A DNA stretch of 64,000 nt, taken from the IMG/VR virus record IMGVR_UViG_3300037524_002067, positions 90,344-154,343 of that record; one strand, given 5' to 3'. Below, piece by piece: positions 2,731-35,540 of this stretch (the stretch's first letter is position 1; each line of letters opens with the position of its first letter). This stretch comes from a virus. The translations under genes and the position numbers were made by a program. Under the pieces are notes generated by a model. The model searched no databases. It was not told where the DNA came from and saw only the letters and a program-made list of their open reading frames with translations.

Positions 2731-2766
2731 GTTATACGTGTGTAAAAACAAAAAGGTTTCAAAAAA
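2731..2766 (-). promoter_or_regulatory. ECF-type promoter TGAAAC-N17-CGTATAAC
   Basis: Minus strand TTTTTGAAACCTTTTT...CGTATAAC; same elements and spacing recur at 35506-35540. Confidence 0.7.
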
Positions 2767-2773
2767 GCTTTTT

Positions 2774-4153
2774 TTAACAAAGAGGGGCAATTATTTTTTT
2801 AGCAGATTCATAGTCTTTTAATATAAAAGCCTTTTTATTCACTAAAAAATTGGACATATCTGTTATTTTAAACAAATTACATATAGTTAAAAAATCAGTT
2901 ACTTGTTTTTCGGTGCAATTTAAACCATAATCCTGTATAGACTTTAAAAAGTCTCTATATTTTGGCATCATATCACCAACACTAACTGATCCATATTTAA
3001 AAAGAACATCTAAAAAACTCATATAACTAGCATCTTTTAAAACAACACCTTGCGATTTTAAATCTTCTAAAATTTTTTGCTTTTCATTATAGTCTGACTT
3101 AATTTCTTCTGTTTTTAAAGGCTGAAATTCACCTTCTTGGTTTGCTACATAACTCATAACGACATCTGTTTTTTCTGGTTCATTCGTTGTGTGTTGATTT
3201 TTGTTTTCTTCTTTTAGTTCAAAATTTTCTGGAGCAATATTTGCTCCCTCATTTGCTCCCTCATTTGCTCCCTCATTTACAGTATCATTTACACCATCAT
3301 TTACAACATCATTTACAGGAGGTCCTTCTTTTTTTATTTTTTCTTTGTCTTCTCCAAACTCCCTTTCCAAAGCTATATTTGTTGCAACTATTAAAAAAAC
3401 AGCCATTGGATCAAAAACAAATATTAATAAAAGTATAAAAAAATTAACTACTTGATCCATGTCTCTACCAGTGAGTTTAGCTATATATTTAAGTGGTCCA
3501 ACTTCACCATTTACATCGTTGTTTTTAAGATTTAAAACCTCAAGATCTAAAGCTGTTGTTTCATTATACTTTCTTTGTGTTCTAGCGTTTAGTGAATCAA
3601 TTTCAACATTAACACTAAAAATCTCTTTGTTAGCTTGCTCTATTTGAGCCTCGACTCTTTTTGCAACACCAATCTGTCTTCTCCCGTATAAGCTATCCAG
3701 TCTTGATTCTTGTTGGCTTCTAAGATTTGTCAAAGATTTTATTCTATCAGACTTTAAATTTTTGCTTTCTTCTAATCTTTTTATTTCAGAAATTATAATT
3801 TCTTTTTTCTGGTTAACCATTTCAATTTGAGCGTCTATATTCTGAAGCTTTCCAGATGTTGTAGAGTATGCGTTTGATAAAAAGCCGTATATACCAGCAC
3901 TTGTTATTATCATAACAACTGCAACACCAATTACGAGATATGTTTTAAGGTGCCATTTTATTTTTTTCCAATACCTGTGTAAAAATGAAGCTGTAACTAT
4001 TTTTGCAAATTCCAAGGCGGATGCCATTATTATAACTTCTACTTTGGCACCACCAAATAATTTCGACAAACCAGTTACGGAAAAAAATGCAGCTGCTCCA
4101 GCTAATGACAAAGCTGCTAACGCAACTAAAAATGGGAATATATACTTTTTCAT
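2774..4153 (-). CDS. membrane-anchored coiled-coil protein
   Basis: Three N-terminal hydrophobic helices, long coiled coil, GPLKY motif, further TM helix (FFILLLIFVFDPMAVFLIVA), soluble C-terminal domain. Confidence 0.75.
   Translation of the reverse strand: MKKYIFPFLVALAALSLAGAAAFFSVTGLSKLFGGAKVEVIIMASALEFAKIVTASFLHRYWKKIKWHLKTYLVIGVAVVMIITSAGIYGFLSNAYSTTSGKLQNIDAQIEMVNQKKEIIISEIKRLEESKNLKSDRIKSLTNLRSQQESRLDSLYGRRQIGVAKRVEAQIEQANKEIFSVNVEIDSLNARTQRKYNETTALDLEVLNLKNNDVNGEVGPLKYIAKLTGRDMDQVVNFFILLLIFVFDPMAVFLIVATNIALEREFGEDKEKIKKEGPPVNDVVNDGVNDTVNEGANEGANEGANIAPENFELKEENKNQHTTNEPEKTDVVMSYVANQEGEFQPLKTEEIKSDYNEKQKILEDLKSQGVVLKDASYMSFLDVLFKYGSVSVGDMMPKYRDFLKSIQDYGLNCTEKQVTDFLTICNLFKITDMSNFLVNKKAFILKDYESAKKIIAPLC
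3239..3317. repeat. 12-bp tandem repeat encoding (V/A)N(D/E)x tetrapeptides
   Basis: ATTTGCTCCCTC x3 then ATTTACAnnATC x3 plus a partial copy. Confidence 0.9.
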
Positions 4154-4190
4154 TAAGTTGAAAAATAATAATTTTTAAATGAAAAACCAA

Positions 4191-4622
4191 TTATTTTTCA
4201 CCAGGTTGTAAATCTGTGTGTGTGTTATCGCCCAAACCATGTTTTATTTTAAAATCTGATATCATTTTTTGCAAAAAAGATGTTGGTCTTCCATGAGTTT
4301 CGTTGTTTGGTCTTAAATCTTCCAGGTGTTTTTTTGTCCACTTATTAACTTCACCCTCTGGGGTAATATAATCTTCGTAATTATGATACCAAGTATCTTC
4401 ATACCAAACATAAAGTGGATGGACTTCACCATATGAATAAGCAACATACATCTTTCCTAAATCACCCAAATCTTCACCATAAGTGTGAGATCCAACGAAA
4501 TTTCTGCGATTAGCAACCTCTTGGGAAGCTTGTTTATTCGTTATTCTCTCTTCGTCTAAATATGCCTCCATTGGAATATTAAGCAAAGATTCTCTTATTA
4601 TTTTTCTAATTAGATCTTTCAC
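4191..4622 (-). CDS. hypothetical, putative head-packaged protein
   Basis: N-terminal MKDLIRKIIRESL motif; TATTTATA 16 nt upstream. Confidence 0.7.
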   Translation of the reverse strand: MKDLIRKIIRESLLNIPMEAYLDEERITNKQASQEVANRRNFVGSHTYGEDLGDLGKMYVAYSYGEVHPLYVWYEDTWYHNYEDYITPEGEVNKWTKKHLEDLRPNNETHGRPTSFLQKMISDFKIKHGLGDNTHTDLQPGEK

Positions 4623-4638
4623 TCAAGTTTTTGTTTTA

Positions 4639-4646
4639 TATAAATA
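4639..4646 (-). promoter_or_regulatory. putative late promoter TATTTATA
   Basis: Recurrent motif upstream of gene starts. Confidence 0.55.
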
Positions 4647-4650
4647 TCTT

Positions 4651-4685
4651 AAAAAAAACCCCCAAAACATAATTTTGAGGGTTTT
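4651..4685 (-). terminator. intrinsic terminator after ssb
   Basis: Imperfect stem AAAACCC(C)CAAAA/TTTTG(A)GGGTTTT with T-run on the minus strand. Confidence 0.65.
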
Positions 4686-4702
4686 AAATATAGAGAATTT
4701 AA

Positions 4703-5167
4703 TTAAAAAGGTAGGTCTTCTTCATCTTGTGAATTAAATGCTTCATTTCCATTTGTATATGCGTTTGCTTGTTGAGCTGCCTGTGCAACACTATTGCTAA
4801 CACTCTCTGTTGGAGCATTGTTAGCACTAGAAGATCCTGGTCCTTTTGGAAACAATTTAATTTCATCAACTTTAATTTTTGTCCAATAGCTCACTTTTTC
4901 ATCTTTTTCACTTTTTCCATAAGTAATATATCCTTCGATATACACAAGCATTCCTTTTTTAACGAATTCAGATGCAAATTTTGATTTGCCATTCCAAAGC
5001 TCTATTGTATGCCACTCTACTTTTGTTTGTTTGTTACCATCTTTGTCTTTGTAAGAAGAATTGGTAGCCAACGAAAAAGTTGTTACCTGATTTTCACCTT
5101 GAAAAACTTTTGTTTTAGGGTCTTGACCCACTGATCCGATTAGGATTACTTTGTTTACTCCGTCCAT
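4703..5167 (-). CDS. ssb: single-stranded DNA-binding protein
   Basis: VNKVILIGSVGQDP, FSLATN, EWH, KKGMLVYIEG, acidic C-terminal tail EEDLPF. Confidence 0.96.
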   Translation of the reverse strand: MDGVNKVILIGSVGQDPKTKVFQGENQVTTFSLATNSSYKDKDGNKQTKVEWHTIELWNGKSKFASEFVKKGMLVYIEGYITYGKSEKDEKVSYWTKIKVDEIKLFPKGPGSSSANNAPTESVSNSVAQAAQQANAYTNGNEAFNSQDEEDLPF

Positions 5168-5240
5168 AATAGTGTAATTTTTATTTGTTTATAATGCTAT
5201 AATTTAAACACTAACACGTATAAAATAAAGTTTTTTTGGA

Positions 5241-5248
5241 TATTTATT
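5241..5248 (+). promoter_or_regulatory. putative late promoter TATTTATT
   Basis: Motif in sense orientation ahead of a plus-strand gene, so it follows gene orientation. Confidence 0.55.
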
Positions 5249-5273
5249 AAAAACACAGACAATTTTGTATCTT

Positions 5274-6959
5274 ATGCAAAAAAATTTAAAATCAATAATC
5301 AGAGAAGCTTTTAACGCGGCTTATCAACAATATAAAAAAAGCATTGTTAAAGAGGATACTTCAGCTGAAATGGCTGCAAGATTTGAACAAACCCCTGAAG
5401 GTAGAGCGCAAAAGGCAAAAGCTGATCAAGTTATTGATGTTCTAGATAATCAAAAAAGAGGTTGGGAAAAATACCACTGGGATCCTTCTGGAACTTCATC
5501 TTATGACAATTTAAACCACGCACAGTGGAACTATATAATAGAAACACTTTCAGAAAGAGCTAGATTAACAAAGGATCCAAAATACGCTCAAATATTTTCT
5601 AATATATATTCTGTGCTTCCAGTAAGAACTATTGATAGTGATGGCAACTCTATTTCTTCTAATTCGCCAGCATATAACTATTTCATAAACAACAGTGAAA
5701 TGTTGCGTGATATAGCAAGACAAAACCCAGATATGGCTTTTGAAGCTCTTGAAAACGCTTGGGGAAGAGCTTTTTATACAGATGAGTGGAATAAATTACT
5801 AGATTTATATCAATCAATGCCTGGGGCTAATTTTGGTAGCTTATTGGCAAACAATATTCGTCGTTGGACAAATGACCTTTTAAAATCTAAAAAAAACAAA
5901 CTAAGACGCGGAACTGGTTCTTTAGATGCCCCAAGCAACATAACTGGTAAATCAACTGATGTTGAAGGTGGTATTGAATCACAAGAAGACGATAGTATGG
6001 ATGACGAAGAACAAGTGGGTGGGCCAAAAAACGCTTTTGATGATGAAGAAAATGCGGAAGACAGCTTAGAAACTGGTTTGGATGCATACTCATCTGATGC
6101 AAACAACCTAGATGCCCTATCAAAAAGCAAAAAAGTAGCAGCTTTAAAGTTTCTAAAATTTCAAAAAGCCATTGATAAAATTTTGAACATATCACAGGCT
6201 CTTCCATTATCAAACAAACAACAACAAGGCGTTTTTGCTCTTAGCGAAATATTGAAAAACTTTAAAACATACGATGAAATCGCATCTGAATTTCCAGAAA
6301 AATTCTCAGATAAAGATGAACAAGGCAACGTTGTAAATGCGGAAGTTGCCGCTGTTAAATCAAGATTAAAAAGCATCTTGAATAAGATAGCAAAACCAAT
6401 GTTGGAACCATATGGCGTTACTCCTGATGTGTTTTCTGAAAAATCGTGGGAAAGCAAATATAATTTGCCAAATGACATAGTTGATCAAATTGTGAATCAA
6501 TTCAATGCTGTTTCAAAAGCTGGCACAACTGAAAAAAGACAATATACAAATGCGTTTATAGAATATGCTAAAAACCATTTAACACCAGAAGAAATAGCTG
6601 AAAAACCTATTCAAGGAGTTTACAAAAAAGAAAAAAGAAAAACATCTAGCGCAGATGCTGTAAAAGAAGCTATAATGAATTTAAATAAAAACCAAAAGTT
6701 TGAGGCTTTAGCTGACTCAATATTAAACGAATTTGGTTTTCCAATTGCTTTTGACTCTATTATTTGGTCAGATTATTGGAAAGCGGGAAAAGAACTTCAA
6801 AGTTTAGCTGGAGCAAAAAAGGAACCAGCTTTAGCAAAAGAAAAAGATCCAGAAAAAGATTTGTACCCTTTTCAAAGAGAGAGTTATGAAGCTTTTTTGG
6901 CAGAAAATTTTGATATAATTGTAAAGAAAGTATATGATAGATTAGAAAAGTTTTTATAA
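5274..6959 (+). CDS. divergent ECF-like sigma70-family factor, possibly virion-packaged
   Basis: Region 2-like NPDMAFEALENAW...LYQSMPGANFGSLLANNIRRWTNDLLKSKK, SLDAP, acidic linker, region 4-like ALPLSNKQQQGVFAL...TYDEIA...AVKSRLKSILNKI; N-terminal LKSIIRE; ATG 5274 preferred over TTG 5265. Confidence 0.6.
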   Translation: MQKNLKSIIREAFNAAYQQYKKSIVKEDTSAEMAARFEQTPEGRAQKAKADQVIDVLDNQKRGWEKYHWDPSGTSSYDNLNHAQWNYIIETLSERARLTKDPKYAQIFSNIYSVLPVRTIDSDGNSISSNSPAYNYFINNSEMLRDIARQNPDMAFEALENAWGRAFYTDEWNKLLDLYQSMPGANFGSLLANNIRRWTNDLLKSKKNKLRRGTGSLDAPSNITGKSTDVEGGIESQEDDSMDDEEQVGGPKNAFDDEENAEDSLETGLDAYSSDANNLDALSKSKKVAALKFLKFQKAIDKILNISQALPLSNKQQQGVFALSEILKNFKTYDEIASEFPEKFSDKDEQGNVVNAEVAAVKSRLKSILNKIAKPMLEPYGVTPDVFSEKSWESKYNLPNDIVDQIVNQFNAVSKAGTTEKRQYTNAFIEYAKNHLTPEEIAEKPIQGVYKKEKRKTSSADAVKEAIMNLNKNQKFEALADSILNEFGFPIAFDSIIWSDYWKAGKELQSLAGAKKEPALAKEKDPEKDLYPFQRESYEAFLAENFDIIVKKVYDRLEKFL

Positions 6960-6962
6960 AAA

Positions 6963-7214
6963 CTATTCTTGTTTCATAACTACTACCTCAAAATTTTCGT
7001 TATCTACTCTAACAATCTTGTTATCTTTATCAATTTTAAAAATATTAAGATTGCAATCAAAAAAAACTTTAGAGTAGTTCATATCAGTGCCTGACAATAT
7101 TTTGTTTTTAGAGATGTCCTTGATCCTTATTTGTAATCTATCTTTTTTAGGTGTTAAAACCTGTTCAAATAAAAAATTTACTTCTTTATAAAATTGTGTA
7201 TCGCTCATACACAA
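6963..7214 (-). CDS. hypothetical protein
   Basis: ORF tightly following the NUDIX gene; ATG at 7208 may be the start. Confidence 0.55.
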   Translation of the reverse strand: MCMSDTQFYKEVNFLFEQVLTPKKDRLQIRIKDISKNKILSGTDMNYSKVFFDCNLNIFKIDKDNKIVRVDNENFEVVVMKQE

Positions 7215-7220
7215 ATTTAG

Positions 7221-7664
7221 TTATTTTTTAGAGAAAAGACAAATTATGTCGTTAATTATGTCTAGTTTTTTTAAAAGTGTTTCTTTAAACCCAGACAAAA
7301 GACTCTCTGGTGTTTCGTTTGGAAAAAACCACCCAAAATCAATAGCTTCACCCTCAACTTCAATGTTTGGTGTGAATTCCTCATCAAAAACACCAGCAAA
7401 AGTATAAAAATCAATATGATTTGTTTTTTGAACGTGTAATGGTTTTTTGGACATTCTATATTTGCCAAGATACATACTTTCTTCTCTAAATTCTCGCTTA
7501 GCTGTATCTTTTGGAGATTTGTCTAAATCATTTTCAAATCCACCACCAAAACAAGCCCATTCTCCAGGTTGATCCTGGTCGTGACCGCGTCTTACCAAAA
7601 GAATTCTTCCAGTTTTTGGGCAAATAGGTAAAACACCAGCAGCTATTTGTTTTTGAGTTCGCAT
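7221..7664 (-). CDS. NUDIX hydrolase
   Basis: AAGVL..TGRILLVRR, WACFGGGFE..SPKDTAKREFREES Nudix box. Confidence 0.92.
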   Translation of the reverse strand: MRTQKQIAAGVLPICPKTGRILLVRRGHDQDQPGEWACFGGGFENDLDKSPKDTAKREFREESMYLGKYRMSKKPLHVQKTNHIDFYTFAGVFDEEFTPNIEVEGEAIDFGWFFPNETPESLLSGFKETLLKKLDIINDIICLFSKK

Positions 7665-7668
7665 ATTT

Positions 7669-7676
7669 AATAAATA
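7669..7676 (-). promoter_or_regulatory. putative late promoter TATTTATT
   Basis: 4 nt upstream of the NUDIX ATG. Confidence 0.45.
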
Positions 7677-7692
7677 TGCTAAAAAACAACTT

Positions 7693-9195: not shown

Positions 9196-9198
9196 TAC

Positions 9199-10059
9199 TT
9201 ATTTTGCTTTTTCTAATTTTTCTTTGTATTTGTTCAAAATTCTTGTAAGCATTGATTTTGTATCGGCTGGCATTTTAGAAACGTTTATTAACCAATCATA
9301 ATATTGCATGTCTTTATAAAGAGATTCTCCGATTGGTTTACCTGGCTGTTCGCCATCTTTAGATGGTCCGTATTTTGTTCCAAAATTAAAAATTGGCACA
9401 CCCTTTTCATTCAATATGATATTACCCTCAATATCTAAAGACTTGATAGATTTATTGAAAACCTTGCTTATGCTCTCAACTGTTGGCTCTATTTTGTTTG
9501 TTGCTTTGGTCTTGTTGTCTGCCAACTCCTTGCCAGAATATTTATCCATCATGTCGTTTAACATTTCAACACACATATTGTTTGTTTCCTCAGAAGAAAT
9601 TGTTTCTATTTTTTTGTTACAGTAGAAACTGCATGCTGATTTAAAATCTCTTGGCTCCATTGTGTGATAAATCTTGGAAAGTTCTATTATTTCTCTTCCA
9701 ACTATATCAAATGGAACATTAACTCTATAAAACTCTTCCGACAATATTTTAAGATCAAAGTACTTTATATTAAATCCCGCAAAATCACACCCCTCTAAAA
9801 ATTTAGATATACCAGTTGCTGCTTCAGCAAAGGTTTTCGAGACTTTCAATTTTTCATTTGTAATACCAGTTATTCTAGTTATTTCATCAGATATTTCTAT
9901 ACCTGGATTAATAAATCTCGTACCAACCTGGGTTGTTCCATCTATGTTTACTTTTAAAATAGATATTTCTATTATCTTATCTGTTTTAACATCTAGACCA
10001 GTGGTTTGAACCTTTATGAATGCGATTGGTTTATTGTGTGTAATTTTTAGCTTTTCCAT
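9199..10059 (-). CDS. DnaQ/Pol III epsilon-like exonuclease, catalytic residues substituted
   Basis: FIKVQTTGLD (ExoI DxE becomes KxQ), INPG, ITGIT, AGFNIKYFD, C-terminal FNFGTKYG; ExoIII HxAxxD not seen. Confidence 0.8.
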   Translation of the reverse strand: MEKLKITHNKPIAFIKVQTTGLDVKTDKIIEISILKVNIDGTTQVGTRFINPGIEISDEITRITGITNEKLKVSKTFAEAATGISKFLEGCDFAGFNIKYFDLKILSEEFYRVNVPFDIVGREIIELSKIYHTMEPRDFKSACSFYCNKKIETISSEETNNMCVEMLNDMMDKYSGKELADNKTKATNKIEPTVESISKVFNKSIKSLDIEGNIILNEKGVPIFNFGTKYGPSKDGEQPGKPIGESLYKDMQYYDWLINVSKMPADTKSMLTRILNKYKEKLEKAK

Positions 10060-10068
10060 AGTGTATTT

Positions 10069-10329
10069 TTAAATCCAATTTCCAGTTATTTCTTTATTTA
10101 ACATTTCAATATCTTTGTCTTCCCACTCTTCCAATATCTCCTCTACAAAAACAACATCATCTTCTTTTGACCAAAATATTCTTATAATATTTGTGTCATC
10201 TATTGTTTTAAACAAAGATCTTGTTTTATCACCACAAATATACAACAATTTTTTACCAGCTTCAACAAAATGTCCATCTTTAAAAATTTTTTGTTCGCGA
10301 AGCTTAAAATACCTAGACAGTTTTTTCAC
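10069..10329 (-). CDS. hypothetical protein
   Basis: ORF overlapping the sigma gene stop by 4 nt. Confidence 0.6.
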   Translation of the reverse strand: MKKLSRYFKLREQKIFKDGHFVEAGKKLLYICGDKTRSLFKTIDDTNIIRIFWSKEDDVVFVEEILEEWEDKDIEMLNKEITGNWI

Positions 10330-11219
10330 GACGTTTTACAACTTAAAAACTCTCTTAATTTATTGCTTTTATTATATGCTCTCAATTTTTTAAGAGCCAA
10401 TTCTTTTATTTGTCTAACTCTTTCATTTGTAAGATTTAATTCATCGCCTATCTCTTTTAAGCCCAACTCTTTAGAGCCATTCAAACCAAAGTACATATTT
10501 AAAATTTGACTCTCTCTTTCAGTGAGAGTATTTAATACAGAATTTATTTCATGTTTTAAAGATTCACTGTTCAGTTTAATATCAATATCTTCCATTGTTT
10601 CTCCTGGTATTATATCAATCATCTCTGAATCTGAATCCTCGCTAATTTTTTGATCAATTGAAAAACATTTTGAACTATCTAAATACGATGTTTTAATCTC
10701 ATCAGATGTAAAATCAGTAATCGCCTGAAGCTCTGCTTGAGTTGGCTCTCTATCTAGCTGTTTAAACAACACCTCTGAAGCTTTGTTTATTTTGCCTATA
10801 ATATTTATCTTGTTAATTGGCAATCTCACCATGCTTCCATTTTCATATATGTATTGCATAATTGATTGACGAACCCACCAAACAGCATAAGAAATAAACT
10901 TGAACCCCTTTGAGGGATCAAATTTATCAACGGCCTTTATTAGCCCTATATTTCCTTCGTTGATCAAATCTTCTGCGGACACATTCCCATATTGGTATTC
11001 CTTTGCGATAGTCAAAACAAATTTCAAATTACACTCCACTAAGTCTTTTAATGCTTTTTGATCTCCTGATTTTGCTCTAATAGCTAACTTAATTTGATCG
11101 TCGCCACTTATATCTTCTATTTTTCTAAGATCTTTAAAATAATTTTTTAAGGATGTGCTACTTCCAGTAATTGAAAGGTCGCTGTGTCCTATTGCCATTT
11201 TTTTGCTTTTGTGCCCCAT
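10326..11219 (-). CDS. rpoD: RNA polymerase sigma70 factor, short RpoD/SigA type lacking region 1.1
   Basis: LVECNLKFV, DLINEGNIGLIKAVDKFDPSKGFKFISYAVWWVRQSI, VRLP, L.EIG..LNLTNERVRQIKELALKKLR. Confidence 0.95.
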   Translation of the reverse strand: MGHKSKKMAIGHSDLSITGSSTSLKNYFKDLRKIEDISGDDQIKLAIRAKSGDQKALKDLVECNLKFVLTIAKEYQYGNVSAEDLINEGNIGLIKAVDKFDPSKGFKFISYAVWWVRQSIMQYIYENGSMVRLPINKINIIGKINKASEVLFKQLDREPTQAELQAITDFTSDEIKTSYLDSSKCFSIDQKISEDSDSEMIDIIPGETMEDIDIKLNSESLKHEINSVLNTLTERESQILNMYFGLNGSKELGLKEIGDELNLTNERVRQIKELALKKLRAYNKSNKLREFLSCKTS

Positions 11220-11546: not shown

Positions 11547-11578
11547 CAAATATAATAATATTTTTAGTAACTAGCAAA
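11547..11578 (-). promoter_or_regulatory. Bacteroidetes-type primary-sigma promoter TTTG-N20-TATATTTG
   Basis: -33 TTTG at 11575-11578, -7 TATATTTG at 11547-11554, 20-nt spacer. Confidence 0.75.
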
Positions 11579-13337: not shown

Positions 13338-16300
13338 TTAACCACATTTGCTCGTTCCACAAGATGCGCACTTGAGGCACCCCTCCGAAAAGATAATGCT
13401 ATCTTCTGCTCCGCAATTTGTGCAGTTTGCACCTTTAAGTTTAGTGCCTTCTGATATGTATTTTTTAATACCTCTAACTACACCAGCTTTCCACGTTGTC
13501 AACGCTTCCTCCCCAAGATTTAAACTCTCTACTAGATTAATTACATATGGTAATGGCATTCCATGTCTCAAGATACCAGAAATCATTTTGGCATAATTGT
13601 GATAATCATGGTTAAAAGCTTTTGAAAGGCCTTCGATGATCATTACGTCATCTGTTTTGTGGTTTATTATAAAATCATATCTTGACTCACCATCAATTTT
13701 TAATCTTCTTATAACACCATTTTCAATTGATTTTGGTATTTTAAATTCATCTTCTCTACCAGTAAAAATTTCATAAGGTCTACCCTCAAACAACCCAACA
13801 AAAGCTATCCACTTCTCGCCCTTGTTTGTGAATCTGTGAACATCAGCATCTAAAAACTTTGGTCTTTTAGGCGCATGACTATCTTCAAACATTTTTTCTT
13901 TTTGTTTTTCTTTCTTTTCTGTTTCACTTACAAGAACACCACTTCTAGAACCTTCTCTGTAAACAGTAACACCCTTACAACCACTTCTCCAACCAGTTTC
14001 ATAAACTTTAGCAACAGTTTCTTCTGAAATGTCTTCTGGCAAATTAACGGTAACAGAGATAGAGTGATCGACATGTTTTTGAACCATTCCCTGCATTTCC
14101 ACTTTTTTCACCCAATCAACATCGTTTGATGTTGCTTTATAGTAAGGAGATTTTTTAATAATTTTTTCAATGTCTTCTTTTGGCATATTTATAACCTCGT
14201 TAACGTTATAGCCATTTGCTTCAAGATAAACCAAAAACTTATGATGAAACACTGGATATTCTTGCCAAGAATCACCAACGCTATCTGTAAAATCAACTCT
14301 AGCATTTTTGTCATTTGGGTTTATCTTTCTCCTTCTCATGTACATAATCATGAAAGCTGGCTCAATACCAGAAGTTGTTTGAGTTAAAATAGATACCGAT
14401 CCAGTTGGCGCAATTGTTAGAAGAGCAATATTTCTTCTGCCATATTTTACCATATTCTCATATAATTCAGCATCCTCTTTTTTAATTCTGAGAATAAACG
14501 GATTGTTTTTTTCTTTTTCCCAATCATAAATAGGGAAAGCGCCTCTTTCTTTAGCCAACTCAACAGAGCTTGCGTATGCAGCAAGCTTTAAGTTTTTGTG
14601 AACTTTTTCAGCAAATTTATTTCCCTCATCGGTTCCATAAATAATACCAAGAGCAGCCATCATATCCCCCTCAGCAGTAACACCGAGACCAGTTCTTCTA
14701 CCTTGTATACACTTATTTTTTATATTTGTCCACAGTTTGATTTCTGCTCTTTTAATTTCTTCTTCCTCTGGATCGCTGTTTATTTTTCCTAATATCTTAT
14801 CAATTTTTTCTAACTCTAATTCAATAAGGTCATCCATTAAACGTTGAGCAATAACTACATGCTTTTTAAATAATTCAAAATTAAATTTGGCTTTATCTGT
14901 AAAAGGATTTTCAACATAAGAATAAAGATTTAAAATAAGCAATCGACATGAATCATTCGGACATAGTGTGATTTCACCACAATTATGAGTCACAATACCA
15001 TTTGCTTCAAACTTGTTAATGCCAGTTATTTGACAATCATACACATCTTCATATCCAGCTTCTACGATAGATTCTATTTCATCACAAAATCTTTCTCTAT
15101 ACAATCCTCTTAAATTTAAATTACTAATAGCCTCATTTAGTTTTTTGCTTTTTACCTCATCTTTAAAACCTATAACTTGATTAAAAATATCAACATTGTC
15201 TTTAGAAATAATCAATTCGTGTTGTGCATTAACAAAATAATCTTTTTGCCCACCTTTTCCATTTGGCATAGCCTTAAACCCGCCTGTTCTCCTATTTTCA
15301 TAGACACTGGAAATTATACCGAATCTTGATAACATTCTTTGTATTGAATATAGATTATTTAAATCAGAAGAGGCAAGTCTAACGTTAATTCCTTTTTCCA
15401 GATTATCATTTACTGTTCCATCAGCATCAAAAATTCCAGATATAAACCCTATTTGAAAATTGCTACTAGTTTTTTCTATTTTTTCAGATATATGCTTGTT
15501 GACAACCTCTAACTCCTTAGCAAGTTTAAACACTTCTGAACTGCCAATTCTTACCTTGTGCATTATTTCTTCGTTAAACAAATTATCCCCACTTCCTAAA
15601 TCGTTTCTGTGTTTAAAATTGTTTTTTATCAAAGAAATAGCGTATTCTTTCATTTCGTTCCTATTATCTCCCCAATACTCAAAAATAGCTCTCTTAGAAT
15701 CAAAAGTGCCATCTCCTATTAAATTACCAATAAGCCACCCCTGTTCTGAATTGCCAAAACCCTTCCAATTATTTTCTCTGTTGTTAGAGATATTTATTTT
15801 ATCTCCCACATTTAAGTATTTAACTTCACACCATTCTGTGTGTTTTTTATCTCTACTTATATCCACAACCCTTTCAAGCTCATGATTGTGAGTAGCTCTA
15901 ATTGAGTATCCTCTTTTGGTTTTTACTTCATAAACCTTTTTATGACCAGTTAGAAAAAAACCTTCTGCAGTAGAGGGAGACATAACCCCATCAACAATAG
16001 CATTAAATTGTTTTCCTAATAAATCTTTTACTTGACGTGGACCACAATCAGTTAAAATCCATGTGTCTCCTGGAATACAAGGGTTCGTGCTTGTTGTTTT
16101 AAAACCAAGATCAGCATAACAATCTGGAATTGACTCTCTAATAATTGTGTCCCAAAATAAAACACCTGGCTCCGCTCTTTTCCAGGCATTATGAATAACT
16201 TTTTTCCACAAAGGAGAGGCTTCAATCTCTTTTGTATATTTTGGGGTGTTCGAATCAATTGGATATTTTTGTGTAAACTTATTTTCTGACAATGCGGCTT

Positions 16301-17000
16301 TCATAAAATCATCAGAAACTCTTACTGACACATTTGCGCCAGTAACTTTTTTCTCATCCATTTTCGCGTCAATAAAAGCCTCTGAATCAGGGTGCACAAT
16401 AGAAATAGATTCCATAAGAGCCCCTCTTCTTCCGTCTTGCGCAACCTCTCTTGTAGAGTTAGAAAAACGTTCCATAAAAGGAACGACACCAGTTGATGTT
16501 AATGCTGAGTTTTTTACTGGCGTACCTTTTGGTCTAACAAAAGAAAGATCTAAGCCAACACCAGCCCTTCTTTTCATTAGTTGCACTAATTCCTGATCCA
16601 ACTTCAATATTCCACCATATGAATCAGAATCTTTGTCGTTGCCTATTACAAAACAATTTGACAATGATACATATTGAAAATCGTTACCGATTCCAGCCAT
16701 TGGACTCCCCTGAGGGACTAGATATTTAAAATCTTTTATCAAGCTGTATATCTCTTCCTCAGATAAAGGGTTTTCAAATTTTGATTCTGCTCTCGCAAAT
16801 TCTCTAGCTATTCTCTTGTGCATATCATCTGGTGTAAGCTCAAAAATATTCTCGTTAGAATCTTTTAAAGCATATTTATTTACCCAAACTTCTGCTGCCA
16901 AACTGTCTCCATTAAAGTATTTTAAAGACGCTTCTATAGCTTGTTCTCTTGTATAAATCTCTTGTTTTTTTTCTGTTTTTGTTAATGTATTTTGTTCCAT
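13338..17000 (-). CDS. nrdJ: class II (adenosylcobalamin) ribonucleotide reductase with intein
   Basis: SLSNCFV, QDGRRGALM, GANVSV, AEPGVLFWD, TNP[intein]CGE, RRTGLG, IAPTGS, TSGIEP, KGVTVYREGSR, C-terminal Zn ribbon CTNC..CASC. Confidence 0.95.
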   Translation of the reverse strand: MEQNTLTKTEKKQEIYTREQAIEASLKYFNGDSLAAEVWVNKYALKDSNENIFELTPDDMHKRIAREFARAESKFENPLSEEEIYSLIKDFKYLVPQGSPMAGIGNDFQYVSLSNCFVIGNDKDSDSYGGILKLDQELVQLMKRRAGVGLDLSFVRPKGTPVKNSALTSTGVVPFMERFSNSTREVAQDGRRGALMESISIVHPDSEAFIDAKMDEKKVTGANVSVRVSDDFMKAALSENKFTQKYPIDSNTPKYTKEIEASPLWKKVIHNAWKRAEPGVLFWDTIIRESIPDCYADLGFKTTSTNPCIPGDTWILTDCGPRQVKDLLGKQFNAIVDGVMSPSTAEGFFLTGHKKVYEVKTKRGYSIRATHNHELERVVDISRDKKHTEWCEVKYLNVGDKINISNNRENNWKGFGNSEQGWLIGNLIGDGTFDSKRAIFEYWGDNRNEMKEYAISLIKNNFKHRNDLGSGDNLFNEEIMHKVRIGSSEVFKLAKELEVVNKHISEKIEKTSSNFQIGFISGIFDADGTVNDNLEKGINVRLASSDLNNLYSIQRMLSRFGIISSVYENRRTGGFKAMPNGKGGQKDYFVNAQHELIISKDNVDIFNQVIGFKDEVKSKKLNEAISNLNLRGLYRERFCDEIESIVEAGYEDVYDCQITGINKFEANGIVTHNCGEITLCPNDSCRLLILNLYSYVENPFTDKAKFNFELFKKHVVIAQRLMDDLIELELEKIDKILGKINSDPEEEEIKRAEIKLWTNIKNKCIQGRRTGLGVTAEGDMMAALGIIYGTDEGNKFAEKVHKNLKLAAYASSVELAKERGAFPIYDWEKEKNNPFILRIKKEDAELYENMVKYGRRNIALLTIAPTGSVSILTQTTSGIEPAFMIMYMRRRKINPNDKNARVDFTDSVGDSWQEYPVFHHKFLVYLEANGYNVNEVINMPKEDIEKIIKKSPYYKATSNDVDWVKKVEMQGMVQKHVDHSISVTVNLPEDISEETVAKVYETGWRSGCKGVTVYREGSRSGVLVSETEKKEKQKEKMFEDSHAPKRPKFLDADVHRFTNKGEKWIAFVGLFEGRPYEIFTGREDEFKIPKSIENGVIRRLKIDGESRYDFIINHKTDDVMIIEGLSKAFNHDYHNYAKMISGILRHGMPLPYVINLVESLNLGEEALTTWKAGVVRGIKKYISEGTKLKGANCTNCGAEDSIIFSEGCLKCASCGTSKCG
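14982..16079 (-). mobile_element. intein with LAGLIDADG homing endonuclease in NrdJ (366 aa)
   Basis: Starts CIPGDTWILT, block B IRATHNH, LIGNLIGDG and FISGIFDADG, ends VYD..NGIVTHN followed by catalytic C of NPCGE. Confidence 0.95.
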
Positions 17001-27996: not shown

Positions 27997-28010
27997 ATTT
28001 TGTTTTTTTA

Positions 28011-28018
28011 TATAAATA
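28011..28018 (-). promoter_or_regulatory. putative late promoter TATTTATA
   Basis: 14 nt upstream of ATG. Confidence 0.6.
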
Positions 28019-28056
28019 TTGCAATAAAACTTATTGCTAAAAACAGTTTTTTACAA

Positions 28057-28088
28057 ACAAAAACCGCCTACAATATATCGTAAACAGT
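28057..28088 (-). terminator. intrinsic terminator with G-U rich stem
   Basis: Minus strand ACTGTTTACGA/TTGTAGGCGGT pairs fully with wobble, followed by TTTTGTTT. Confidence 0.6.
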
Positions 28089-28102
28089 AAAAAAAACAAA
28101 GC

Positions 28103-31100: not shown

Positions 31101-31732
31101 CTAAATCTAACAGAATCTTTTTCAAGATCTGATCTTGATTCAACATTTAAAGATAAATTATTTCTTCTATATTCAGAAGAATCTTCTTCAATGTTTGATT
31201 CTGATTTTACATTTGCTGAAATGTTATTTTGCCTAAATGTATCATTGTTTAATTCTGCTTCATTTTGAGCATTTAAATTTGGTTTATTTTTAGAAGTATT
31301 ATTATTCCTAAAACCTTCTGAATCTTTTAATATATCGTTTTTTGAGGTTTCATTTTTGGATAATAAATCATCTCTAACAACAGCTGATCTTTTTAAAATC
31401 TGATCCGCTTCAGTTGTTATTTTATTTCTTGCAAGAATAGCTTTTCTAGTGTCTTCTGAAGCTTTTTCCAAAGAATAGTTTTGATAAATATTTTTAGCTA
31501 AAATAGCATCTCTTATAGATTGATTGTTTTTTTCTAAATCTGTAATAACTGGTATATTTTTAGCGACCAAAGCATCTCTTGTTTGCGGGTACAAAACATC
31601 ATAAACACTGTTTGGTGCAATAAGATTTTTTGACATAAGCCTTCTTCTTACATCGCTAGAAAATTCCTCGTAAAAAAACCTTAAGTTTTCTTCACTTATT
31701 TCACCCAGATTATTATCGTCAAAATAACTCAC
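28103..31732 (-). CDS. baseplate/tail-tube-initiator-like protein with long N-terminal 22-aa repeat region
   Basis: C-terminal YFPPYI..FAANWN..YLGRPESIYTYNNSSR and RPPVCHIKLGDW..IIIDSVSF..PW..QPMWATVSINF; located after the tape measure gene; GTG start. Confidence 0.7.
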   Translation of the reverse strand: MSYFDDNNLGEISEENLRFFYEEFSSDVRRRLMSKNLIAPNSVYDVLYPQTRDALVAKNIPVITDLEKNNQSIRDAILAKNIYQNYSLEKASEDTRKAILARNKITTEADQILKRSAVVRDDLLSKNETSKNDILKDSEGFRNNNTSKNKPNLNAQNEAELNNDTFRQNNISANVKSESNIEEDSSEYRRNNLSLNVESRSDLEKDSVRFRENNTSSNSTSASDIESSSSFYRDQNIASNVSKNTNLEVDSESFFNKNISLNVKSESDIDKDSKDFRDKNVSQNVSSQTDIEKDSQVFRNNNVSKNTSTISDIEKESEQFRYNNVSKNTNTISDIENDSKQFRENNLSKNTPTTSDLESESKDIRYKNLSLNTPTTSDIESDSKTYLKDNLSLNTPTTSDIESDSKTYLKDNLSLNTPATSDIATDSVPFYNSNVAANVPSSSDLATDSVPFYNDNVAANVPSSSDLATDSVPFYNSNVAANVPSSSDLATDSVPFYNDNVAANVPSSSDLATDSVPFYNDNVAANVPSSSDLATDSVPFYNDNVAANVPSSSDLATDSVPFYNSNISANISSPIDLESYSNDFRDDLLSANVPTISSLEENSERFRKYNLSKNTPSKQLGVVIEGIGTSAFLGVSNVLLQGVLLRQILLSRNIRGILSIDTYAQEKQNQFLIESSNETINTHRSLQTIYGTSTSSVFGTTLLNGTTNGYITDAIRNYNISRNYYNIKDIQPFNADYYNILQTNTNEGFQALLASTPNSFVIRNLNFSQLAPSGNYTYKNPEEVFAANELMSKTTAGNPLMDAEFEAGTKGVLGIIRKIRDSRDSIFSRNYNVQDQTEFVVGMNGAQPRISRQRYTVSNPYSAGSAKKVLFYIQNYSSGDGYYFPPYIQDYSESFAANWNAINYLGRPESIYTYNNSSREGTITFVVLTDFSNGVLLGTNFGSANMESIRLTEEDLKGTHFTNRDSIQNKNKRYAQNSTEQKNAKIQEIKAEIETAIKFGKTTNDPGTQDINNKDIEELKREESALLKSVNNSFTQENRPTNYSETNGNIYNVYNETSTNPTPSNFGISESIISDTKQRINAMVKNLAFQPAFFSGDKVDFVTKMDFLGKLTRPSSAKSNSGFSFTRPPVCHIKLGDWWDSDIIIDSVSFNMTNAPWTLDGGRVQPMWATVSINFKFVGSYGSSNGLPVLSDDVSGFYAPKGKNLGSIK
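30035..30463. repeat. 66-bp coding tandem repeat, 6.5 near-identical copies
   Basis: Unit encodes SSSDLATDSVPFYN(D/S)NVAANVP; degenerate 22-aa periodicity extends from about 29900 to 31560. Confidence 0.95.
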
Positions 31733-31745
31733 AAATTTGTTTATA

Positions 31746-31753
31746 TATAAATA
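31746..31753 (-). promoter_or_regulatory. putative late promoter TATTTATA
   Basis: 13 nt upstream of GTG. Confidence 0.6.
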
Positions 31754-31773
31754 TAGCGCATAAAAAAATAAAC

Positions 31774-34700
31774 TTATTTTAGCACCTTAGTGTCATTAAT
31801 TAAAAATTGTTGCAAATCTCTACCATTAAGTTTTAAATTTATTTCTATTTTTCTTGTTTCTCCATCACCTTGTTTTGCTGGAGCTACAGCTTGCACTCTT
31901 TGCGTTTCTGTCTCACTGGCTTTTTTCATGTTGTTGGCCATGCTCATAGAAACATCTTTTAATTTTTCAAGTTTTTCTATGTTTAATTTTTCGGCTGCTA
32001 CACTTAATTTTAAAACGCCATCTGCTGCTGAATTTAAGCTTTGGGCTAAAATAGAAATAGCTGGCGCAAGCAATGCTAATTCAGAAATTTGAGTAAACAT
32101 ACCACCACCAAACAAACTCATAACACCACCCATAGCAGTTGCTGCACCAAAAGCAACAAGAGCATAACTTAAAGCTCCAATTCCAGCTGCAACACTCAAC
32201 AAGTTACCACCGTCAATATCTGAAAAAGCACTAAAACCAGAAGATATTGCAGGCATAGCTTCAGCAACAGATTTGGCAGCTAAACCAAAAACCCAAAACG
32301 CTGCAGACATTACACCTAAAGCTAAGGAGCCAGACAATATCAAAGGCATTATAGCCCCTAAACCAACAACAGCAGCCGTTAAACCAATAATTGTAAGAGC
32401 TGCTATACCAAGCTCTTCCAGGCCTACGTCAGAAAATTTTCCAAGCGCCTCTCCCATTAACCACAAAGCTCCAGCCATAACGCCAAGAGCTAGAGCTCCC
32501 TTGATTATATCAGTAAAACTAACAGAGGTAAATGCTTTAAAAAAACCAGCAATAGCTTCTCCAACACCCCTAAACACATCTCCAATTATCCCCATTATAC
32601 CTTGAACTGCTGACCTTATGACATCAAAAAATCCTTTTACAGATTCAGAAATTCCTTTTAGTTTTTCAGCCATTGACTTGCCCTGAGAAACCTGAGAACT
32701 AAGACTACCAGAGCCAGTTCCAGATAATGACGCACCATCTTCTCCGCCAGTTGGTGTTCTTTTTAAAATTTTGTTAGCTACAGAAGAAATTTTATCTTTT
32801 GCTCCAGCAGCTAAAAGACTAATTACGCTTTTCCCAAATATGCCAGCAGCAATTAACATACCAGTTATAGCTAATTGCAAACCAGTCCCAAGACCCTCAA
32901 ACACATTGTTTAATTTTCCTATAGCTTGAAAAAATCCATTTAGGGTTTGGAAAATCCAACCAAGTGCTTCAAGTATTGGTTGAAATACTGTTAAAACTGA
33001 AAGTAAACTTTTTATAAAATTATCGAAAGATTGTTTAAGATCTTGATTTGCTTTATTTTGAGCTTCTAAAGTTTCTTTGTTGTCTTCCATTTTTTTCTTT
33101 AACATAGAAGCATCCATGTTTTGCAACTCTTCCAAAGATTCAATACCCATTTTCTTTGCCATATCGCTGCTTGCATCAAACTCTATTGTGCCATCCTTGT
33201 TTTTCTTCATCATATCAGCAATGCTTGATTTTGCAAACTCTCTGTCAGCCTCGTCCATGCTATCAATTAAGCCAGAAAACATGTTTGTTTTCTCTATGTC
33301 TTCTGCATTTTTTGCAATCATATTTTGAAGGCTTTCCATGGATTGACCAGTTGCCTCTGAAACCATTTGCAATCTATCAACATCAACTGGATCAAAAACA
33401 TATTTTTGTTGCTCTTCATCAAAATGACCAATATCTTTACCCATTGTAGTGAGTATTCTTTGTAGTTCTGCTGGACCTTTTCTTGCGGCAGACAATAAAT
33501 CCATTGGATTTATGTTGGAAAATGAGCCACCAGCTAATTGTAGTTCGGCGGCCATATCCATTGCGCCCTCTATACTTCTGGCTCTTTTAGCCATATCAAA
33601 AGTTTCATCAATATTCATCCTTAATCTTTCTGCTGTAACAGCCATTCTCATTAAAGATTTTTCCCCGCCAGTGAAACCCATTTCGCGCATCTTTTTGATG
33701 TTTTTGCTAATACCACCAAGCACTTTACTTGAGCTAACACCAAACATCCTAGCTTGTTGATCAGCCTCTTGCATAAAATCTTTTACTTGACCAGAACTCT
33801 CACCCATCCTCATTAATTCACCAGCTATTGTGGTGATATCTTCAGAGGCTGCTCCAGTAGCGCCAGCGATCATAGCAAAATCCTGAGTTGCTTTTGACAA
33901 CAAATTAAAATCTGTTGTTTTTAACTCTTTAGACATGTCTGCCATCATTTGACCAGCCTCTTCAACTCCAACACCATATTGTTGCACAGAAGTGGTTAAT
34001 CTTGAAAAAGCGTAAGCGTTTTCATCCATTCTTATGCTTGTTTCTTTTTGCACTTTATGCAAAACTGTATCAAACTCAGTTAAGGTGCCGAGCACCTCAT
34101 TTCTCATTCTTTTTCCAAGAGATACAAAAACTTTATCAAAAGCGTTGCCAAGTTGAAAAACCTCATTGGGTTTTAACATTTCTTCTTTTATCTTAGCCGC
34201 CATTTCAGCAGCTTCTGTCATGCCGTTATTTATATTTATAAGCTCTTGAGCATTTTCATGCATTAAAGCAACCGCTATCCTTTGTTCACTATTACTTTCT
34301 TCTATTATCTTTTTCCAATCAACTATGCCATCATTTAATTCTTGCTGCAATCTTATTTTTTCAGCCAAATCAATTATTGCGTTATCATCAAGATGTGATA
34401 AAGCTATGTTGTCTTTTCTTATTTCTCTTAATACATCATTGAGCTTCTCACTGTTTTTTAGAGTTTTTTTGCCATTGATTTCGTCAAACTCTGTAAATTT
34501 CGATATACCTTGTAAAGATCTAGTTAGTTTTTCAACCTGGTTTGGATCAATCATTTTTGCAAATTCCTCACCAGCCTGATTAAACTTTTGCTGTAATTTA
34601 TTTACAACATTAGACATTTCTTTTAATTCATCTGATGTCTTTGGAACTTCTTTAAAAAAATCAGCTCCATCAATTTTAAACAACTCAGAAGATATAGCCT

Positions 34701-34815
34701 TCCAAGATTCCTTAATGGTTTCAGCAGACTTATTTAAAGCCTTTTGTTTCTCAAGCATATCATTGAGAGCCTTTAAGGTTTTTTTATATTGATTTGATGA
34801 GTCGTCTGCTGCCAT
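31774..34815 (-). CDS. tape measure protein
   Basis: 1013 aa helical, A/M/G-rich, hydrophobic GA-rich C-terminal helices, ends IEINLKLNGRDL; tail-module context. Confidence 0.8.
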   Translation of the reverse strand: MAADDSSNQYKKTLKALNDMLEKQKALNKSAETIKESWKAISSELFKIDGADFFKEVPKTSDELKEMSNVVNKLQQKFNQAGEEFAKMIDPNQVEKLTRSLQGISKFTEFDEINGKKTLKNSEKLNDVLREIRKDNIALSHLDDNAIIDLAEKIRLQQELNDGIVDWKKIIEESNSEQRIAVALMHENAQELININNGMTEAAEMAAKIKEEMLKPNEVFQLGNAFDKVFVSLGKRMRNEVLGTLTEFDTVLHKVQKETSIRMDENAYAFSRLTTSVQQYGVGVEEAGQMMADMSKELKTTDFNLLSKATQDFAMIAGATGAASEDITTIAGELMRMGESSGQVKDFMQEADQQARMFGVSSSKVLGGISKNIKKMREMGFTGGEKSLMRMAVTAERLRMNIDETFDMAKRARSIEGAMDMAAELQLAGGSFSNINPMDLLSAARKGPAELQRILTTMGKDIGHFDEEQQKYVFDPVDVDRLQMVSEATGQSMESLQNMIAKNAEDIEKTNMFSGLIDSMDEADREFAKSSIADMMKKNKDGTIEFDASSDMAKKMGIESLEELQNMDASMLKKKMEDNKETLEAQNKANQDLKQSFDNFIKSLLSVLTVFQPILEALGWIFQTLNGFFQAIGKLNNVFEGLGTGLQLAITGMLIAAGIFGKSVISLLAAGAKDKISSVANKILKRTPTGGEDGASLSGTGSGSLSSQVSQGKSMAEKLKGISESVKGFFDVIRSAVQGIMGIIGDVFRGVGEAIAGFFKAFTSVSFTDIIKGALALGVMAGALWLMGEALGKFSDVGLEELGIAALTIIGLTAAVVGLGAIMPLILSGSLALGVMSAAFWVFGLAAKSVAEAMPAISSGFSAFSDIDGGNLLSVAAGIGALSYALVAFGAATAMGGVMSLFGGGMFTQISELALLAPAISILAQSLNSAADGVLKLSVAAEKLNIEKLEKLKDVSMSMANNMKKASETETQRVQAVAPAKQGDGETRKIEINLKLNGRDLQQFLINDTKVLK

Positions 34816-34828
34816 TTAAGCGTTTCTT

Positions 34829-34836
34829 AATAAATA
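34829..34836 (-). promoter_or_regulatory. putative late promoter TATTTATT
   Basis: 13 nt upstream of the tape measure ATG, directly after a terminator. Confidence 0.6.
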
Positions 34837-34842
34837 TAAAAT

Positions 34843-34875
34843 AAAAAAAAACCACCCCTAAAAGGAGTGGTTTTT
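34843..34875 (-). terminator. intrinsic terminator
   Basis: AAAAACCACTCC..GGGGTGGTTTTTTTTT on the minus strand. Confidence 0.8.
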
Positions 34876-34897
34876 GATTTAAAGTTTTATTAAAAAA

Positions 34898-35485
34898 CTA
34901 TTTAATCTTACCTTGAATATAACTGATTTTATCTGCGTTGTTTAATCCAGCCATTCTTGAATCAGCGAAACTTGCGGCTCTTTGGGTATTTGGCCCATAT
35001 GATTTACCACCATCTCTAAATGTATCCAACCTGGATGTACTATTTAAATATGCTGCAGCATCAGCTGAATTCATTCCAGCCATAACAGACTCTCTGTATC
35101 TAATAGCTTCTTCTATGTTGTTAAAGCTTCCACCTGTTTTTGTTCTATTCCAGTTTGCATACCATGGCCTTTCATGCATTAAAGCAATTCTTTCTCTATA
35201 TGTAAGGACCTGCAAAAGACCAACAACAAAAAATTTAATCAGCTTCCAAACAAACACCAATAGTGCACAAATAGTTAAAAATTCAGCCAAATCTTTTGGC
35301 ATATATTCCGAACCATGTGCAATCATCCACTTTTGTAAAGATTTAAGGTCTTTTTCTGTGTAATTAAACAAAAAATAAGAAGAAAACAATAGCCTTATTA
35401 GACCATGCAAGAGCTTTTCTTTTGAATTGAAGTTCACCTTTCCACCAAGCGGTTTAGATGATTGATATGTAGCTTTTTTATCCAT
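34898..35485 (-). CDS. membrane protein, stand-alone transcription unit
   Basis: Two hydrophobic segments; internal repeat S.MAG(M/L)N.AD...Y; own ECF-type promoter and terminator. Confidence 0.7.
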   Translation of the reverse strand: MDKKATYQSSKPLGGKVNFNSKEKLLHGLIRLLFSSYFLFNYTEKDLKSLQKWMIAHGSEYMPKDLAEFLTICALLVFVWKLIKFFVVGLLQVLTYRERIALMHERPWYANWNRTKTGGSFNNIEEAIRYRESVMAGMNSADAAAYLNSTSRLDTFRDGGKSYGPNTQRAASFADSRMAGLNNADKISYIQGKIK

Positions 35486-35505
35486 TTTAATTGGTTTCTT
35501 AACTG

Positions 35506-35540
35506 GTTATACGAAAAGAAACCAAAAAAGGTTTCAAAAA
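35506..35540 (-). promoter_or_regulatory. ECF-type promoter TGAAAC-N17-CGTATAAC
   Basis: TGAAAC at 35531-35536, CGTA at 35510-35513; same as 2731-2766. Confidence 0.7.

Follow-up and report, generated by a model that had tools for sequence, protein, structure and literature searches.

We analysed a 64,000-bp window, the whole stretch of DNA under study (positions 90344-154343 of the 154,343-bp IMG/VR record IMGVR_UViG_3300037524_002067, here G000), for two bipartite promoter-like elements on its minus strand, termed class A sites 1 and 2, and for the sigma factor that may read them (Table 1). The record, 59% complete as assessed by CheckV, derives from a large tailed phage of Bacteroidota; it has a G+C content of about 31%, about 80% of its genes lie on the minus strand, and only 9% of its 154 kb is non-coding. 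Site 1 reads TTTTTGAAACCTTTTTGTTTTTACACACGTATAAC and site 2 TTTTTGAAACCTTTTTTGGTTTCTTTTCGTATAACC on the minus strand; in site 2, the TGA stop codon of the upstream open reading frame (ORF) forms part of TGAAAC. The coordinates of both sites and the exact 17 nucleotides (nt) between TGAAAC and CGTA given by the initial annotation were reproduced, and the start codons that it had placed about 20 nt downstream were found 21 nt (ATG at 2709) and 20 nt (ATG at 35485) after the CGTATAAC of sites 1 and 2, respectively. The gene behind site 1 encodes a RadA/KaiC-like ATPase of 300 amino acids (aa) that scored 8e-17 against the NCBIfam RadA/Sms model, which is under the curated cut-off. Behind site 2 lies a gene for a 195-aa protein that had no match in Pfam, PHROG or NCBIfam. 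Each gene ends in its own terminator, as had been claimed, and the two hairpins fold at the z scores listed in Table 1. The window further contains the genes of two sigma-like proteins, a divergent 561-aa protein, termed cryptic sigma in the following, and a 297-aa sigmaA-like factor.

Table 1. Positions of the features discussed. Coordinates refer to the window unless the record or another locus is named.
Feature	Position	Strand	Remarks
Putative class A promoter, site 1	2731..2766	-	T-tract; -35 TGAAAC 2761-2756; 17-nt T-rich spacer; -10 CGTATAAC 2738-2731
Putative class A promoter, site 2	35506..35540	-	-35 TGAAAC 35536-35531; 17-nt spacer; -10 CGTATAAC 35513-35506
Gene behind site 1, 300-aa RadA/KaiC-like P-loop ATPase	1807..2709	-	Pfam KaiC-type ATPase, 4e-11
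Intrinsic terminator of the ATPase gene	1757..1785	-	10-bp G+C-rich stem and U-run; -13.8 kcal/mol; z -4.5 versus shuffles
Gene behind site 2, 195-aa protein with hydrophobic stretch	34898..35485	-	
Intrinsic terminator of the 195-aa gene	34843..34875	-	13-bp stem and U-run; -16.9 kcal/mol; z -5.5 versus shuffles
Candidate reader, 561-aa cryptic sigma-like protein	5274..6959	+	Structure model and weak profile match
TATTTATTA element, class-B-like	5241..5249	+	Upstream of the cryptic sigma gene, T-tract before it
297-aa sigmaA-like factor	10326..11219	-	Pfam regions 2, 3 and 4; no region 1.1; RpoD/RpoS-like, 222 bits
Host-type promoter TTTG-N20-TATATTTG	11547..11578	-	Heads the operon with the sigmaA-like gene; perfect copy; kept in L015, L016 and L029
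TATTTATA class, motif ends	62952, 57412, 50363, 47491, 39966, 40006(+), 31746, 28011, 12147, 4639		
ClpB/ClpC-like double AAA+ ATPase	3-1481 (reaching into the window)	-	Beside the PrsW gene
PrsW-family membrane protease	G000:87428-87937	-	66.3 bits versus cut-off of 23.5; about 2.4 kb before the window
Portal	45198-47447		
Large terminase	47506-49653		
G001 operon	L130:3560-3920	-	Class A promoter, 71-aa membrane ORF, 211-aa canonical ECF sigma

Within the window, TGAAAC-N16-18-CGTA occurs twice against 0.16 matches expected. A scan of the whole 154-kb record with the strict pattern TG[ACT]AAC-N16/17-CGTATAA retrieved 17 copies, compared with a mean of 0.025 in Markov simulations, and 16 of the 17 were intergenic, each aimed at the next gene or tRNA array. 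Further intergenic copies, which the initial annotation had expected of a genuine promoter class, thus exist. Its count of two sites on stand-alone genes was too low: both sites are real, and the class also precedes tRNA arrays and many small genes. Leaving out the one strict copy inside a gene and adding three near-matches (one variant base) gives a family of 19 sites, all in the non-coding 9% of the record. Eighteen lie on the minus strand, the coding one; the remaining site precedes a plus-strand gene and shares its strand. Fifteen sites have a 16-nt spacer; in the other four, which include sites 1 and 2, it is 17 nt. When the search starts at the -35 box, each intergenic sense-strand TG[ACT]AAC[CT]T has (C/T)GTATAA at N16/17; when it starts at the -10 box, nearly all intergenic sense-strand CGTATAA carry a -35 box. 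TG[ACT]AAC is present in 19 of 19 sites by selection of the pattern; the T-tract after AAC (T at positions +7 to +10 in 14-18 of the 19 sites) lies at positions that the pattern did not select, and an A-rich tract follows 8-11 nt past CGTATAA. The resulting consensus is tTTTG(A/T/C)AAC(C/T)TTT - ~12 nt - (t)CGTATAA(c/a), with an AAC-to-CGT gap of 16, at times 17 nt, located 5-35 nt before start codons. Behind class A sites lie small ORFs that resemble membrane proteins, the ATPase gene and tRNA-array leaders.

The site 1 element is kept upstream of the ATPase orthologue in five related phages (L015, L017, L018, L111, L113; 57-66% protein identity where measured), with TGAAAC, TGCAAC, GGAACC or TGTAAC as -35 box, CGTATAAT as -10 box and diverged spacers. 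Equivalents of site 2 precede the orthologue of the 195-aa protein in G008 (TGTAAC-N16-CGTATAC) and G004 (GAAC-N16-CGTATAAG), these two being weak orthologues. A functional bipartite element would be expected to leave this pattern, in which both boxes are retained at orthologous sites while the spacers diverge.

Promoters of extracytoplasmic function (ECF) sigma factors in Bacillus subtilis combine the -35 consensus tGAAACnTTTt with a -10 box, which is CGTA in the case of sigma-W and either CGTC or CGAC in that of sigma-M and sigma-X (PMC5758882), and those of Flavobacterium are marked by a CGT -10 box (PMC9723704). Class A has the AAC -35 box with T-tract, the CGT(A) -10 box and the 16-17 nt AAC-to-CGT spacer of such promoters. 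The earlier assignment of TGAAAC...CGTA to the ECF (SigW) type, as distinct from Bacteroidetes housekeeping promoters, agrees with the B. subtilis consensus and spacing (PMC5758882) and with the lack of TAnnTTTG at the two sites. A scan for TTTG-N19-21-TAnnTTTG retrieved neither site 1 nor site 2; the same scan retrieves the promoter of the sigmaA-like operon. Pattern, placement and conservation support class A as a real, recurrent and conserved bipartite element of the ECF (sigma-W) type.

Two further promoter-like classes were found in this phage. Canonical Bacteroidota promoters (TTTG-N19-21-TAnnTTTG) head a few operons, among them that of the sigmaA-like gene and not the genes behind sites 1 and 2, and have further copies at G000 85994, 40531 and 39310; they would be in keeping with a host among the Bacteroidota that drives early transcription. 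Upstream of tRNA arrays, host-type promoters overlap several of the class A sites, forming composite promoters. Four paralogous composites lie outside the window (G000:1554, 28950, 55032 and 77470; L024-L027), each with a short ORF and a tRNA array behind it; in their layout, CTTG-N20-TAnCTTTG overlaps TGAAAC-N16-CGTATAAA, and TATTTA(T/A)A follows. Many start codons, those of portal and virion genes among them, are preceded at 4-19 nt by the third class, (c/a)TATTTATA(a), which has a T-rich tract upstream and no -35 box. Thirty-eight of its 70 genome copies fall in the non-coding 9%; in related loci, raw TATTTATA counts are at the level expected at 30% G+C, and placement alone is informative. 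Read on the opposite strand, TATTTATA equals the T4 late box TATAAATA.

The distribution of class A was surveyed in 49 IMG/VR records with a sigmaA-like factor, each of which was searched for the class A motif, the sigma model TIGR02937, the cryptic sigma family and PrsW. G000 itself has 17 strict copies (19 with variants), the cryptic sigma and no canonical ECF sigma in the sampled sequence. The initial annotation had proposed to look for the motif together with homologues of the cryptic sigma, and the two do occur together in the related phages G005 (11 copies, control 0), G004 (4 copies, control 0) and G007 (4 copies, control 1), which are close kin and have no canonical ECF sigma. The more distant phage G001, 72% sampled, has 38 copies (control 1), no cryptic sigma and two canonical ECF sigmas of 211-213 aa with Sigma70_r2 and r4_2; the 47-kb fragment G002 has 9 copies (control 1) and neither type of sigma. 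One operon of G001 has the classic autoregulated layout (Table 1), and its 71-aa membrane ORF is a candidate minimal anti-sigma. Thirteen complete genomes with sigmaA-like factors only had the motif at control level. ECF-sized TIGR02937 matches were absent from G000, G004, G005, G006, G007 and G008 (about 450 kb of partly overlapping clade sequence). This distribution argues against the sigmaA-like factor as the reader of class A and for an ECF-type reader, and it suggests that the cryptic ORF may fill the place of a canonical ECF sigma in this clade.

The cryptic sigma (residues numbered by the 564-codon TTG frame starting at 5265) comprises a sigma2-like part at about residues 85-216, an acidic disordered linker at 228-282 and sigma4-like helices within 283-495. 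The linker has 55 residues, and the protein is extended by 85 residues at its N-terminus and further at its C-terminus. The ORF had no match in Pfam, PHROG or NCBIfam and was absent among the TIGR02937 matches of the genome; its family comprises 55 representative clusters, none with a family name. A full AlphaFold (AF2) model from 51 sequences had a mean predicted local distance difference test score (pLDDT) of 81.5, with values >90 over residues 40-210. Among the best 50 VIA-align matches of this model, about 25 were sigma factors, all aligned to residues ~85-216: T4 gp55 (7d7d_F; Z 7.0 over 115 residues), SigI6 (Z 6.1, root-mean-square deviation 3.0), sigmaE region 2 (Z 5.7) and SigW (Z 5.5), besides sigB, pro-sigmaK, RpoS region 2, AlgU, SigC, CnrH, SigK and BldN. 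A separate model of residues 283-520 (pLDDT 83.6) had sigma4 of the ECF factor SigL as its top match (Z 5.3, 75 residues aligned). By hhalign against five canonical phage ECF sigmas, residues 153-225 of the cryptic family aligned to regions 2.2-2.4 (E 7e-5, probability 63%) and residues 395-450 weakly to region 4 (probability 13%). The claim that ORF 5274-6959 is sigma-like is borne out, as a very divergent sigma, by structure (Z 5-7) and by the weak profile match (E 7e-5). We conclude that support is good for the sigma2-like domain and that a sigma4-like domain is plausible. By sequence criteria the predicted protein falls outside the ECF group. It has 561 aa compared with the ~170-250 aa of compact two-domain ECF sigmas, which have no region 3 or 1.1, and its gene stands alone on the plus strand with no co-transcribed anti-sigma partner, which departs from the autoregulated ECF layout. 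Upstream of the gene, cTATTTATTAgAAAA is conserved in L015, L029 and L030 and belongs to the class that precedes structural genes. cTATTATTTATTAAAAA, upstream of the Clp-like ATPase gene (window 1482-1756, minus strand), resembles the TATTTATTA before the cryptic sigma gene.

We propose that sites 1 and 2 are putative promoters of a phage-specific class, to which a phage-supplied ECF-type sigma would direct the host core RNA polymerase. The best candidate for this sigma is the very divergent sigma2/sigma4-like protein of 561 aa, and the PrsW protease and Clp-type ATPase encoded immediately before the window may act in one control module with it. The evidence leaves this proposal evenly balanced between right and wrong. 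The initial annotation had named a phage ECF-like factor or possibly a host ECF sigma as reader; of this, reading by an ECF-type factor stands, while ORF 5274-6959 as that factor is only plausible, at even chances. Transcription start at the class A sites, the identity of the reading sigma and the timing are what we infer from the sequence. The early timing that the initial annotation gave to this class gained no support: the host-type promoters found head other genes, such as the sigmaA-like operon, and the element before the cryptic sigma gene is of the kind that precedes structural genes. Class A may be early, by way of a packaged factor, or late.

Several observations weigh against the cryptic sigma as the reader. 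None of 51 members of its family matched the sigma models Sigma70_r2, r4_2 and TIGR02937 at E up to 0.1, Foldseek returned no significant match in the PDB for the full or the C-terminal model, and hhalign against the sigmaA-like family was null. For helical domains, the structural Z scores of 5-7 of the sigma2-like part are modest values. Support for sigma4 is weak: insertions interrupt the aligned helices, and the ~17 sigma4 domains among the best 50 matches of the C-terminal model scored Z 4.2-5.3, no higher than unrelated helical proteins. The cryptic gene has no class A (AAC/CGT) motif upstream, unlike typical autoregulated ECF genes. G006 and G008 contain the cryptic ORF and no strict CGTATAA copy, with CGTATAC at the one G008 site that was read. 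Since the phages with a cryptic sigma are close kin, its association with the motif is not independent and may reflect ancestry alone. The sampled record is only 59% complete. Lastly, PrsW would fit a phage-internal ECF module as well as the release of a host ECF sigma, which keeps a host factor in play.

B. subtilis PrsW performs the site-1 cleavage of RsiW and thereby starts the proteolysis that frees sigma-W. The phage could accordingly leave the reading of class A to a host ECF sigma, an analogue of sigma-W, if its PrsW cut the host anti-sigma and the Clp-type ATPase helped to clear the remnant. We regard this as unlikely, though a serious alternative. The PrsW-family gene does lie beside that of a ClpB/ClpC-like ATPase and recurs in the motif-rich phages G004, G005 and G007, and Bacteroidota have many ECF sigmas, with a CGT -10 class in Flavobacterium (PMC9723704). 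Most PrsW-bearing records, however, encode an ECF-like factor of their own, which would be needless with a host sigma; this is the cryptic sigma in G000, G004, G005 and G007 and an ECF-type sigma in G012 and G035. G001, which has the most copies of the motif, encodes two ECF sigmas itself, yet no PrsW in the 72% sampled.

Alternatively, the sites might be read by a canonical ECF sigma of the phage whose gene lies in the 41% of the genome that was not sampled, leaving the 561-aa protein with another function. The CheckV completeness of 59% gives room for such a gene, and G001 pairs the same motif with two ordinary ECF sigmas of 211-213 aa; we nevertheless consider it improbable, given that about 450 kb of clade sequence holds no ECF-sized TIGR02937 match.

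The sigmaA-like factor is a bona fide sigma and the sole one in the record that Pfam recognizes. Its nearest cellular relatives are the primary sigmaA factors of Bacteroidota and of the Fibrobacterota-Chlorobiota-Bacteroidota (FCB) group (41-47% identity over full length), with which it shares peculiar region 2.4/3.0 residues, and this closeness points to a Bacteroidota host. In E. coli numbering, it has N at the position of R584, where the host sigmaA keeps R, and retains the equivalents of E585, R588 and Q589, the TTG-contacting residues. It could in principle read class A as a variant housekeeping promoter, taking TTG in the T-tract/TGnAAC for the -35 box and TATAA(T) for the -10 box, and the -10 box of the relatives is often CGTATAAT. 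We tried this housekeeping-type assignment and hold it to be improbable as well: TTG-to-TATAA spacing is 22-23 nt compared with 19-21 nt in Bacteroidota and E. coli promoters, the invariant AAC and CG would go unexplained, 13 complete genomes and many fragments have sigmaA-like factors without the motif, and the Bacteroidota-like region 2.4/3.0 residues better fit a TAnnT-type box, for example that of the TATTTATA class. That the motif is no promoter and instead some other recurrent signal between genes, for example a site bound by a regulator or a repeat that spread through duplication, is very improbable. The four copies before tRNA arrays are clearly paralogous repeats and would fit it, but the flanks of the other copies are unrelated, and the strict two-box architecture, fixed spacing, strict sense orientation, location 5-35 nt before start codons and conservation of orthologous sites with divergent spacers all speak for a promoter.

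Close homologues of the sigmaA-like factor (P0010, P0018) occur on contigs of up to 538 kb, and a sigma with 74% identity on contigs of about 540 kb; one such contig, labelled Candidatus Paceibacterota in a public metagenome-assembled genome, is probably a mis-binned phage contig. Two other proteins with weak region-4 matches were rejected as sigma factors: one, encoded at G000 ~75.6 kb, is an HNH endonuclease whose N-terminal part has a helix-turn-helix, the other a 257-aa protein containing two such motifs.

Apart from the portal and large terminase, the window encodes baseplate-hub and virion proteins, DnaE, PolA, DnaB, a RecA-like protein, SSB and UvrD. The gene of the ribonucleotide reductase large subunit (13338-17000, minus strand) is split by a LAGLIDADG endonuclease-bearing intein, which its orthologues in L015 and L029 (858-861 aa) lack. 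The part of the record that precedes the window contains 37 tRNA genes. One tRNA at G000:81480-81552 (minus strand; L028:1480-1552), called tRNA-Pyl by ARAGORN, has the anticodon CUA, which hints at a possible amber suppressor and TAG recoding in part of the phage cycle. A megablast search of 20 kb against cultured phages was empty, and no close cultured phage was found. Pattern searches of IMG/VR with a single protein, either the sigma or the ATPase, yielded nothing useful, and a metagenome scan gave 3 loci only.

Taken one step further than the reading of sites 1 and 2, ORF 5274-6959 might found a branch of the sigma-70 family that current models do not see: a giant ECF-like sigma that reads about 20 sigma-W-type promoters per genome as one tier of a three-sigma programme, with PrsW and Clp perhaps controlling its release. 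We advance this wider scheme tentatively, as somewhat more likely to fail than to hold. Its targets would be the tRNA arrays, the recombination ATPase and membrane proteins, and the tiers would run from host sigmaA-type promoters through the phage sigmaA-like factor to the cryptic ECF-like factor. For the abundant, uncultured huge phages of Bacteroidota, the record offers a concrete and testable map of transcription control, made up of three promoter classes that can be read, two sigma-like proteins of the phage and a PrsW protease. Should the reader be the 561-aa protein, the sigma-70 family would extend to a form missed by current annotation, in a phage that uses ECF promoter logic genome-wide; if it is a host ECF sigma, the phage would be hijacking an envelope-stress switch through proteolysis, a takeover route of another kind and of equal interest. 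Either way, the class A consensus already allows transcription units of this phage group to be annotated.

Among known systems, class A is closest to the sigma-W promoters of B. subtilis, with which it shares the -35 box tGAAACnTTTt, the -10 box CGTA(TA) and the 16-17 nt spacer (PMC5758882). It differs in belonging to a phage of Bacteroidota and not to a Firmicute chromosome and in its longer -10 box with an invariant CGTATAA, and the candidate sigma differs from sigma-W in its 561 aa and in being invisible to Pfam. The sigma-W/RsiW/PrsW pathway has a counterpart in the PrsW-family protease and Clp-type ATPase encoded by the phage; neither a sigma-W orthologue nor a recognizable RsiW-type anti-sigma turned up, no dedicated anti-sigma search having been made. 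The ECF system of G001 has the same promoter type (GAACATTT-N-CGTATAAC, 38 copies), whereas G000 is without an ordinary ECF sigma in the sampled sequence. Bacteroidota housekeeping promoters coexist with class A in this phage, joined to it in the composites before tRNA arrays, but sites 1 and 2 lack TAnnTTTG.

T4 gp55 is the best structural match of the sigma2-like domain; it is itself a very divergent phage sigma that ordinary sequence models miss, a trait the cryptic protein would share. However, gp55 is without sigma4 and reads a single -10-like box, TATAAATA, together with gp33 and gp45, whereas class A includes a strong -35 box; T4 late promoters would find a closer counterpart in the single-box TATTTATA class. 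The group-4-like sigma gp36 of phage phiEco32 is reportedly another factor that steers host RNA polymerase to phage promoters. The phage-encoded ECF-family sigma of phage 7-11 and its relatives redirects host RNA polymerase to phage promoters (PMC5333181); such redirection is also treated in PMC4331800, as far as its citation in PMC5333181 indicates. The promoters of phiEco32 gp36 and phage 7-11 have an extended -10 box without a recognizable -35 box (PMC5333181), in contrast to the full AAC/CGT bipartite structure of class A, and the candidate sigma described here is about three times larger than theirs, with long extensions. Phage-borne ECF sigmas are thus known (PMC5333181); what would be new is a giant, model-invisible one with sigma-W-type promoters and PrsW in huge phages of Bacteroidota.

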